Source: a virus
Reading direction: 5' to 3' (one strand)
Length of the DNA stretch: 48,714 nt
Virus record (IMG/VR): IMGVR_UViG_3300021255_001652
Coordinates: 1 to 48,714 of that record
The translations under genes were made by a program, and so were the position numbers. Below the pieces are notes generated by a model. It was given only the letters and a program-made list of their open reading frames with translations, was not told where the DNA came from and did not search any database. Shown here one piece after another: positions 38,763 to 41,615 of the stretch (its first letter is position 1; the number at the start of each line of letters is the position of its first letter).

Positions 38763-38939
38763 ATGAAACATTGTAAAAAAAGTCATAAATGCCCATATGG
38801 AAATGCTTTTGAGAAAAATGCATGTGCTTATGATGAAAATTTAAATGAATATGATGTATGTCCTTATCTCCTTGAAAATTGGAATTATATTATTGATGAA
38901 TTAACAAAAGAAAGGAAGAGTGGTAATAATGCTGAATAA
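38763..38939 (+). CDS. small Cys-rich protein, 58 aa
   Basis: RBS AAGGAGG + ATG; C-x-C/CPY pattern; overlaps ligase start. Confidence 0.4.
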   Translation: MKHCKKSHKCPYGNAFEKNACAYDENLNEYDVCPYLLENWNYIIDELTKERKSGNNAE

Positions 38940-40155
38940 AAATAATGAAAGAGAACTAGCATATGTAGTTACTGTTGACGCGGTAACTCCTATTGAGGGA
39001 TATGATCGAGTTGAACTTGCTCATGTTGGCGGTTGGACTATTGTTGTTGGAAAAGGTGAGTTTCATGCAGGCGATCCTGCTATCTATTTTGAAATTGACT
39101 CTAAGCTACCTGAGGTAGAGCCTTTTACTAATATGGAATTCCTTGCTAAAAAGGGATATAAGGTAAAGACTCAGAAGATGTGCAAGTCTATTTCTCAGGG
39201 ACTTCTTATGTCCGCCGCAAATTTCGGATGGCATATTGTAGAAGGTGGAAATTATGCTATTGTTGATAATGAGAATTGTTATCACAGAGTTGATGAGGAA
39301 TCTCGTTTTCTGACTAAACAGCTTGGTGTAACTTATTATGTTGCAGAAGATAATACTCGTAAGGCAAACTCTGTCGATAAGTACAAGAAAATGGCTCAGC
39401 GCAACGGTAAGTTGTTCTCTCATCAGCCCTTCAGATGGCTTATGAAGCGAGATTGGGGCAGAAAACTTCTTTTCGTGTTTTTTGGACGTAAGAAAGATAA
39501 TAAGTCTGGTTGGCCTGCTTGGGTAGTAAAGACCGATGAAGAGCGCGTTCAGAATATGCCTTGGATTCTGAATGATAAGGAACCCTGGATTGCAACTGAA
39601 AAGATTGACGGAACTTCTACTACTTTCACTATGAAGCGCGGAAAGTGGCCTCATAAGGATGAGTTTTACGTTTGCTCTCGTAATGTAGTATTTGATAAGC
39701 CTGATAAGACTTGCTTCTACGACACTAACGTTTATACTGAAATGGCAGAAAAGTATGATATTTACAACAAAATGAAAGATCTTTTGTATAATTATTTTGC
39801 AGATTGTGAATGGATTACTATTCAGGGTGAGACTTATGGACCTGGTATCCAAAAGAGAGATTATCACGCTCCTGAACATGCTTTTATGGCTTTTAATTTT
39901 ATTACTTCTAAGGATGGACGCTGGGGAACTGAAAAAATGGTTGATTTACTTCAAAAACATATGGGAATCCCTTGCGTTCCCGTCCTTGATACTAATTTTA
40001 TCCTACCTGATACTGTCGAAGAACTACTTGTTTACGCAACTGCAGAATCTGTTTGTGACAACGATCTTCGTGAAGGAATTGTATTCCGTTCTAAAGATGG
40101 TTCTAAATCCTTTAAAACGGTATCCAATGAATTTCTTTTGAAATATCATCAGTAA
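38929..40155 (+). CDS. ATP-dependent RNA ligase-like nucleotidyltransferase (KxDG motif EKIDGTS)
   Basis: ORF track 38920..40155 (ATG 38929 preferred); lysine-adenylyltransferase motif I KIDGTS; sits next to a kinase + phosphoesterase. Confidence 0.65.
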   Translation: MLNKNNERELAYVVTVDAVTPIEGYDRVELAHVGGWTIVVGKGEFHAGDPAIYFEIDSKLPEVEPFTNMEFLAKKGYKVKTQKMCKSISQGLLMSAANFGWHIVEGGNYAIVDNENCYHRVDEESRFLTKQLGVTYYVAEDNTRKANSVDKYKKMAQRNGKLFSHQPFRWLMKRDWGRKLLFVFFGRKKDNKSGWPAWVVKTDEERVQNMPWILNDKEPWIATEKIDGTSTTFTMKRGKWPHKDEFYVCSRNVVFDKPDKTCFYDTNVYTEMAEKYDIYNKMKDLLYNYFADCEWITIQGETYGPGIQKRDYHAPEHAFMAFNFITSKDGRWGTEKMVDLLQKHMGIPCVPVLDTNFILPDTVEELLVYATAESVCDNDLREGIVFRSKDGSKSFKTVSNEFLLKYHQ

Positions 40156-40262
40156 TAAAAATTTTACAAGGTGGTAATTTTATTGCCATCTTGTTTTTTC
40201 TTTTATTTTTTGTTATAATATATATATAAAGAAATGAACAAAAAGAAAGGATGTGTATTATT

Positions 40263-40559
40263 ATGAGAAGATGTAATGGTTTTGCAATTTCAAAAATGTA
40301 TTGTTGTAATTGCGGAAAAGAAAGTTTGCCAATAGCAAGAAAAGCAGGGCATTATCGTGGAGCTGGTCATTTAAAAAAATTATACTGTATTCATTGCGAA
40401 AAAGTTTGGAATCATGCAGAAATTCGTCCGATGTATAGCGACTATAATTATGAAGATTTTCAACTTGAAATGAAATATAAAAATTTTGATGAAAATGGCA
40501 ATAGAAAAGAACCTTATAGAATTTTTAGAGGTAATTTAAAACAGAAAGGAATTATTTAG
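40263..40559 (+). CDS. zinc-ribbon protein (CxxC x2), ends in TAG
   Basis: ORF track 40251..40559; CCNCG ... CIHCE; stop codon TAG at 40557. Confidence 0.55.
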   Translation: MRRCNGFAISKMYCCNCGKESLPIARKAGHYRGAGHLKKLYCIHCEKVWNHAEIRPMYSDYNYEDFQLEMKYKNFDENGNRKEPYRIFRGNLKQKGII

Positions 40560-40560
40560 T

Positions 40561-41055
40561 ATGGCAGATTTATATTTAATGTGTGGTATTCCTGGCGCGG
40601 GTAAGTCTACTTTTCTTAAAAATAGAGTGAAGAAAGATACTTCTGTAGTAATTTCTCGTGATGTTATTAGATTTTCTATTGTAAAACCTGAAGAAGATTA
40701 TTTTTCTCATGAAGATGAGGTACTTGCGATTTTTTGGAAACAGATTAATGAAGCTCTTGCGGCTGGCAAAAACGTTTTTATTGACCAGACTTCTTTAACT
40801 CCAAAAGCAAGAAAATGGCTACTTCAGCATGTTAAAGGTTATGACCATGTAAATCTCATCTGGATTGATGAAGATATTCAGACATGTCTTGAAAGAAATG
40901 AAATGCGGCGCGGAACCCGTGCTTATGTGCCAAGAAACGTCATCTACCGCATGAACGAACAGTTTATTGAACCTTCTCTTGAAGAGGGGTTTTACAGAAT
41001 TTATTGTTATAACAGCAAAGAAGATAAATTAACTTATAAAGGAGAACCATTTTAA
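40561..41055 (+). CDS. P-loop polynucleotide 5'-kinase-like protein (T4 Pnk / bacterial Pnkp kinase-domain type)
   Basis: GIPGAGKST Walker A followed by ISRDVIR, resembling the T4 PNK kinase domain (GCPGSGKST ... INRDDYR). Confidence 0.7.
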   Translation: MADLYLMCGIPGAGKSTFLKNRVKKDTSVVISRDVIRFSIVKPEEDYFSHEDEVLAIFWKQINEALAAGKNVFIDQTSLTPKARKWLLQHVKGYDHVNLIWIDEDIQTCLERNEMRRGTRAYVPRNVIYRMNEQFIEPSLEEGFYRIYCYNSKEDKLTYKGEPF

Positions 41056-41615
41056 TGATTTATTTTTCATCAGATCTTCATCTAAACCATAATAAACCTT
41101 TTATTTATGAACCGCGCGGTTTTAAAAATATTTATGAAATGAATGATACTATTATTAAAAATTTTAATTCAATAATCACAGAAAAAGACGATCTTTATCT
41201 TCTTGGTGATAATTTTCTTGGAGAGCTTGAATCAGGGATTAGTCTTTTTAATCAACTTCCTGGTAAAATTCACCTAATTTGGGGAAATCATTGTACAGAT
41301 AATAGAAAAATAGCTATGTCACAATGCCATAATGAAGTAGAAGTTATTGGTTTTGCAGGAATGCTCCATTATCATAAATATCATTTTTATCTTAGTCATT
41401 TCCCCACTCTTACAACTAATTTTGATGATTATCAAAAACCATTAAAACAAAGAATTCTTTGTCTTGCTGGTCACACACATTCTAAAGAAAAATTTGAAAG
41501 TTGTGGTTCATATAATGTTGCCGTGGATGCACACAATTGTTATCCTGTTAGTATTGATAAAATTATTCAAGACTTTAATGAAGATATGAAAATTAACAAA
41601 CAAGGACAAAATTAA
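41055..41615 (+). CDS. calcineurin-like metallophosphoesterase (candidate 2',3'-phosphate end-healing phosphatase)
   Basis: SDLHLNH ... LGDNF ... WGNHC motifs; translationally coupled (ATGA overlap) to the kinase gene. Confidence 0.75.
   Translation: MIYFSSDLHLNHNKPFIYEPRGFKNIYEMNDTIIKNFNSIITEKDDLYLLGDNFLGELESGISLFNQLPGKIHLIWGNHCTDNRKIAMSQCHNEVEVIGFAGMLHYHKYHFYLSHFPTLTTNFDDYQKPLKQRILCLAGHTHSKEKFESCGSYNVAVDAHNCYPVSIDKIIQDFNEDMKINKQGQN

Follow-up and report, generated by a model that had tools for sequence, protein, structure and literature searches.

Four plus-strand genes, encoding an RNA ligase, a zinc-ribbon protein, a P-loop kinase and a metallophosphoesterase (MPE), lie at positions 38929-41615 of the 48,714-nt window, by which we mean the whole stretch of viral DNA that was analyzed (Table 1). 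A preceding sequence-only reading had placed these genes within 2.7 kb, and the open reading frame list bears this out for all four. On inspection, the catalytic motifs of the ligase, kinase and MPE are all intact. The positions of hairpins and promoter-like sites point to two transcription units, one with a small ORF and the ligase, and the other with the zinc ribbon, kinase and MPE. The extended -10 pattern occurs 19 times in the window versus 8.25 expected, with copies also upstream of units starting near 37397, 38728 and 43875. In the second unit, a single nucleotide separates the zinc-ribbon stop codon (TAG) from the kinase ATG, and the kinase TAA and the MPE ATG overlap by one base (TAATG at 41053-41057). 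Judged from these junctions, the unit is tightly coupled and the translational coupling of the MPE to the kinase, as first claimed, is real. The small ORF of the first unit matches no family in Pfam, PHROG and TIGR profile searches and is present in only 9 of 80 related loci.

Table 1. Genes and expression signals at the predicted RNA repair locus and in its flanks.
Feature	Position	Strand	Length	Basis or remark
Third MPE, lambda-phosphatase/NinI type	33434..34222	+	262 aa	GDCVDRG and GNHE motifs
Major-vault-protein homologue	34847..37339	+	830 aa	Shoulder domain (MVP_shoulder, 2.6e-22) and coiled-coil region
Pyr_excise (pyrimidine-dimer glycosylase-like) gene	37459-37884			
Second MPE, possible accessory	37877..38722	+	281 aa	Motifs GDIHG / GD / GNHE / GHFH
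Promoter-like site TGATATAAT	38728-38736			Upstream of small ORF; consensus match
Small Cys-containing ORF, optional accessory	38763..38939	+	58 aa	3' end overlaps ligase start by 11 nt
Predicted Rnl5-family ATP-dependent RNA ligase	38929..40155	+	408 aa	ATG start; Pfam, PHROG and TIGR profile matches
Terminator-like hairpin 3' of ligase gene	40166..40194	+		13-bp stem then T run; consensus match only
Extended -10 promoter-like site TGTTATAAT	40211..40219	+		Upstream of zinc ribbon-kinase-MPE unit; consensus match only
Zinc-ribbon protein	40263..40559	+	98 aa	Longest ORF from 40251; ends in TAG
Stand-alone P-loop 5'-OH polynucleotide-kinase-type protein	40561..41055	+	164 aa	Pfam, PHROG, TIGR and structure relatives
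Small binuclear MPE, aq_1665 branch	41055..41615	+	186 aa	phrog_547, 4.5e-38
Terminator-like hairpin	41641..41671	+		Ends zinc ribbon-kinase-MPE unit, ahead of holin gene
RNase H gene	43917-44432			

The first of the four genes had been read as a KxDG nucleotidyltransferase resembling RNA ligases, and it has both a KIDG motif with K225 and a match to Pfam RNA_ligase (PF09414; 1.2e-23). Its ribosome-binding site lies 8-9 nt from the ATG, which makes an in-frame GTG at 38920 the less likely start, and public gene calls also give 408 aa. An OB domain occupies about residues 8-97 (PHA02142 OB domain, PF21189; 9e-20 over residues 13-97), and the C-terminal nucleotidyltransferase domain holds motifs I (K225-IDG), III (QGE301), IV (E382-GIVFR) and V (FK396); the lysines of motifs I and V and the glutamates of motifs III and IV line up with those of Naegleria NgrRnl. 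The only solved relatives are NgrRnl entries (8e-27); residues 11-100 of the ligase align with NgrRnl 5-100 and the alignment extends to NgrRnl residue 337 of 340. Matches to phrog_968 (8.3e-66) and to TIGR02306 (DRB0094; 4.9e-32 at 111.1 bits, under the equivalog cut-off of 151.15) place the protein, as judged from its sequence, in a divergent phage subgroup (phrog_968) of the Rnl5 family. Like the Rnl5 enzymes NgrRnl and DraRnl, it has an N-terminal OB domain, a C-terminal adenylyltransferase domain and no domain past motif V; Rnl5 proteins are about 340 aa, whereas the phage ligase has ~60 extra residues between the domains relative to NgrRnl. Characterized Rnl5 ligases seal nicks in duplexes in which the 3'-OH strand is RNA, a reaction that is Mn-dependent in DraRnl, and their physiological role has been described as uncharted (PMC5397189). 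The gene for DraRnl shares an operon with one other gene, DR_B0095, whose product is similar to DEDDh 3' exonucleases at its N terminus (PMC5397189), whereas the phage ligase is linked to end-healing genes. Profile and structure-relative searches with the ligase returned only RNA-ligase families and no DNA-ligase or capping-enzyme match, and Pfam gave no match to RNA_lig_T4_1. Assignment to the Pnkp ligase type or to T4 Rnl1 was rejected in favor of a nick-sealing Rnl5 type with its N-terminal OB domain.

The kinase has a Walker A motif (G9-IPGAGKS-T17), an acceptor motif (D34-x-x-R37) and a lid arginine cluster (111-124), and matches AAA_33 at 1.3e-21. Its proposed resemblance to the T4 Pnk kinase domain is one of homology (5e-4), but the best solved relative is the kinase domain of C. 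thermocellum Pnkp (4gp7; 1.6e-9), with PSTK ranking between the two, and in the alignment with the C. thermocellum domain the SSDFCR motif falls on D34 and R37. The match to TIGR04075 (bacter_Pnkp; 4.8e-13) covers the kinase region only, and that to phrog_505 (polynucleotide kinase; 1.5e-24) spans only the first half of the profile. The strong matches are thus all to polynucleotide- or tRNA-acting kinases (Pnkp, PSTK, T4 Pnk and phrog_505), whereas matches to nucleotide kinases are weak and under cut-off. A DNA ligase or capping enzyme at the first gene, or a nucleotide kinase at the third, had been named as the identities that would speak against RNA repair, and neither was found.

Domain searches had been expected to recover RNA_ligase, AAA_33 and a metallophosphoesterase family; the first two were matched, and the Pfam Metallophos_2 match of the 186-aa MPE falls under the curated cut-off, though all five MPE motifs (D7-x-H9, G51-D52, G77-N78-H79, H115 and G139-H140-x-H142) are present and conserved. 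The protein belongs to the Aquifex aq_1665 branch, and a classification as a phosphatase of the lambda-phosphatase/Pnkp branch was rejected. The fold alone assigns it no substrate; the closest relatives comprise a protein of unknown function, phosphodiesterases, LpxH and an ssDNA nuclease. Stand-alone members of the family in Herelleviridae do not adjoin kinases or ligases. We predict that the 186-aa MPE is a 3'-end-healing enzyme. Two further MPEs are encoded upstream. The second shares the preceding unit with the Pyr_excise gene and is found upstream of the ligase in 17 of the 53 related loci with enough flank. A homologue of the third lies directly upstream of the zinc ribbon-kinase-MPE genes in three relatives (L039, L054 and L104), and this protein is a possible second 3'-end-healing enzyme.

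In a family alignment of the zinc-ribbon protein with 36 homologues, C14, C17, C42 and C45 are invariant or nearly so, and the protein matches phrog_1257 at 2.8e-9. Its AlphaFold2 model (pLDDT 84.8) has a bL33-like N-terminal half followed by a two-helix C-terminal extension. The top Foldseek matches are 47-54-residue chains of 70S ribosome entries (TM 0.73-0.75, target-normalized; E 0.056), which we read as bL33 from the chain length and from a profile search of PDB sequences that placed bL33 first at a marginal E of 0.059. Both proteins have a four-Cys zinc ribbon of similar spacing and the pattern L-K-K-x-Y-C-x2-C-x4-H-x-E. However, bL33 has ~50 aa and the phage protein is twice as long with its helical C-terminal extension, and the phage gene is always encoded with a kinase and not with ribosomal genes. 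We regard the resemblance as one of fold only and do not class the protein as a member of the bL33 family; it is taken to be an RNA-binding or targeting subunit.

The gene order is conserved well beyond this virus. In 67 related IMG/VR loci, the sequence continues for 4 kb or more past the ligase. The kinase and then the MPE follow the ligase in 50 of them (median gap 33 nt), with a zinc ribbon between ligase and kinase in 36 of those 50, and the order is retained at 31-50% protein identity (kinase down to 31%, MPE down to 37%). This arrangement is beyond chance. All of the related loci represent one broad lineage, and with this common ancestry, part of the synteny reflects descent and not selection. 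Relatives that are otherwise close have one or other of two divergent alleles in the MPE slot (about 80-92% versus about 40-45% identity), a sign that the two may be functionally equivalent. Additionally, kinase-MPE fusions of 341-348 aa, with AAA_33 at the N terminus and the MPE family at the C terminus, occur in five separate 50%-identity clusters; among these, P0446 shares 45% identity with the kinase and 39% with the MPE. The two phage genes are a split form of a protein that is fused elsewhere. The ligase and the pair also occur apart: 15 of the 67 loci have the ligase with no kinase or MPE within about 6 kb, and another lineage has kinase-MPE pairs with no Rnl5 ligase within 5 kb.

Around the module, relatives carry a variable group of neighbors: Thg1-like, weakly RlaP-like, DUF2828/DUF7788, Band-7 and major-vault-protein homologues. 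For instance, a Thg1-like tRNA 5'-end repair enzyme adjoins a kinase-MPE pair in another lineage and, in 11 loci that have the ligase, is found no more than 6 kb away from it. One locus (L070) has a weak match to an RlaP-like nucleotidyltransferase together with a DUF2828/DUF7788 protein that PHROG labels "RNA-binding protein". Band-7 proteins also occur near the module in relatives, and a passage of bioRxiv 10.1101/312249 quotes Burroughs & Aravind 2016 for their prediction as RNA-repair cofactors. Neighbors of this RNA-repair type favor RNA, probably tRNA, over DNA as the substrate.

The sequence-only reading had called the cluster a split Pnkp, a label that fits by analogy only. C. thermocellum Pnkp, of the Pnkp-Hen1 system, has the same three chemistries in the same order of kinase then MPE, and the bacterial phosphatase and the phage MPE both belong to the binuclear metallophosphoesterase superfamily. 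What stands of the idea is the three enzyme classes and the splitting of a fused kinase-MPE protein. What does not is the rest of the equivalence: the phage ligase is of the Rnl5 family rather than the type activated by Hen1, the MPE is of the aq_1665 branch, and a scan of window proteins from 33.4 to 48.3 kb, which took in only part of the small ORFs and TAG-recoded late genes, turned up no Hen1 or methyltransferase domain. Moreover, bacterial Pnkp is one polypeptide of ~850 aa, whereas in the phage the three enzymes have an ORF each, the ligase being set apart from the others by an apparent terminator and promoter, and there is an extra zinc-ribbon protein.

In phage T4, Pnkp and Rnl1 undo cuts made by the anticodon nuclease PrrC. 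There too a phage supplies the enzymes for healing and sealing; the biological logic that we propose is the same, and the kinases are homologous. However, T4 has a DxDxT-type acid phosphatase fused to the kinase, whereas the cluster has a separate MPE and a stand-alone kinase, and Rnl1 acts on broken anticodon loops, whereas the cluster's ligase is predicted to be a nick-sealing Rnl5. The Capnocytophaga gingivalis Pnkp1-Rnl-Hen1 complex has a ligase separate from the kinase-phosphatase and encoded before it (PMC4411300), and is a precedent for both of these features of the phage cluster; its Pnkp1 phosphatase is T4-like and of another superfamily, its Rnl is equivalent to the Pnkp ligase domain, and Hen1 is required. 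In a final example, the cultured E. coli phage HMD-6 (138 kb) encodes an Rnl1-type ligase, a cREC protein, an AAA_33 kinase and a small MPE side by side, with tRNA genes nearby. The HMD-6 MPE (184 aa) is 29% identical over 106 residues to ours, but the kinase (136 aa) is barely alignable beyond the P-loop, the ligase is of the Rnl1 type (PF09511) and divergently transcribed, and the cluster includes the cREC domain protein but lacks a zinc-ribbon gene. The HMD-6 cluster is an independent analogue.

The window is TAG-recoded: the virus, which infects gut or rumen bacteria, reads this codon as an amino acid; its holin and endolysin domains suggest a Gram-positive host. Among the relatives, TAG is absent from 32,606 ligase, 9,214 kinase, 10,502 MPE and 3,752 zinc-ribbon codons, compared to 9.3 TAG per 1000 codons in the endolysin. 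That the module is TAG-free in all relatives fits early expression.

Based on these data, we propose, with a probability of roughly 0.6, that the cluster is an early-made RNA end-healing and sealing system that most likely undoes the damage of host RNA-cleaving abortive-infection or toxin nucleases. As the sequence-only reading had recognized, RNA ends with a 2',3'-cyclic phosphate and a 5'-OH require these three classes of enzyme to be healed and sealed. We infer the enzymatic activities, the RNA substrate and the biological role, and family membership suggests the following steps. The module would be made early in infection, when the cell is still on the standard genetic code. The substrate would most likely be a tRNA or some other structured RNA, cut by a metal-independent ribonuclease so that a 2',3'-cyclic phosphate and a 5'-OH remain. 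The kinase would then move a phosphate from an NTP onto the 5'-OH, and the 186-aa MPE would open and/or remove the 2',3'-cyclic or 3'-phosphate to give a 3'-OH, perhaps helped by the lambda-type phosphoesterases encoded nearby. The ligase, adenylylated on K225, would activate the 5'-phosphate and seal the break with the ends held in a helix, while the zinc-ribbon protein, co-transcribed and translationally coupled with the kinase, would serve in RNA binding or targeting. The partners of ATP-dependent RNA ligases in phages are polynucleotide kinases and phosphoesterases, the latter occasionally of the calcineurin-like kind (PMC7824862), and a counter-defense role may reasonably be drawn from T4 biology and from the Thg1-like, weakly RlaP-like and Band-7 neighbors in relatives. 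The kind of system is known, and here it would be assembled from enzyme families other than those of the textbook examples.

The cluster might instead heal and seal DNA breaks or nicks with an RNA 3' end (for example at ribonucleotide-containing or primer-derived junctions) in phage replication or repair, with the adjacent pyrimidine-dimer glycosylase-like protein and RNase H as partners, which we consider unlikely. Rnl5 enzymes tolerate DNA in the 5'-phosphate and template strands, and loss of DraRnl sensitizes Deinococcus to ionizing radiation and delays DNA/genome reassembly (PMC5397189). Within the window, the genes for those two proteins of DNA-directed function flank the cluster and count against an RNA substrate. 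However, of the 53 loci with enough flank only 7 have the Pyr_excise gene along with the ligase, the recurrent neighbors (Thg1-like, weakly RlaP-like and the PHROG "RNA-binding protein") are RNA-directed, and the closest relatives of the kinase act on RNA or tRNA.

Processing of the phage's own RNAs, such as the finishing of tRNAs (including an amber suppressor) freed by HDV-like theta ribozymes, seems to us quite unlikely. After such self-cleavage the tRNA ends in a 2',3'-cyclic phosphate and the RNA downstream begins with a 5'-OH. The task of the MPE would be to free the tRNA 3' end of its phosphate, with the other products left to the kinase and ligase, although this gives the ligase no clear job. 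The window is TAG-recoded. Many theta ribozymes are attached to suppressor tRNAs, and "RNA ligase, DRB0094 family" is reported as 140-fold enriched in, and present in 54.5% of, theta-ribozyme phages (PMC10879173). Some distant relatives (L059 and L064) have tRNA arrays a few kb from the module. However, no tRNA and no ribozyme was found within the 48.7-kb window; the L059 tRNAs already encode CCA, their 3' flanks have no common motif and the locus has no HDV-like match in Rfam, a database that may have no theta model. Bacteroidota are the predicted hosts of about 90% of theta-ribozyme phages (PMC10879173), whereas a Gram-positive host is suggested here. The TAG-free module is as needed for action before suppression starts, but that state is expected of any early gene. 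In a stronger form that we hold to be very unlikely, the TAG-free MPE, with the kinase, ligase and zinc ribbon, would be the finishing step of the genetic-code switch by making theta-ribozyme-released tRNAs usable, and it would then be the module that determines when late genes with TAG codons can be translated.

Lastly, we consider it very unlikely that the genes are neighbors by ancestry with no single pathway, the MPE for example degrading host nucleotide second messengers, as proposed for phage calcineurin-like phosphodiesterases in counter-signaling (PMC7824862), while the ligase and kinase act separately: the single lineage, the apparently separate transcription unit of the ligase and the loci with ligase or pair alone would suit it, but the five clusters of kinase-MPE fusions, the one-base overlap of the two genes, an order retained at 31-50% identity and across allele replacement, and the same triad built in HMD-6 with a different ligase family all argue for joint action.

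The major-vault-protein homologue is a possible scaffold whose membership in the predicted RNA repair module is uncertain. It aligns with rat MVP at 1.3e-10 over residues 328-777, and is encoded directly upstream of the ligase in 11 of the 53 related loci with enough flank.

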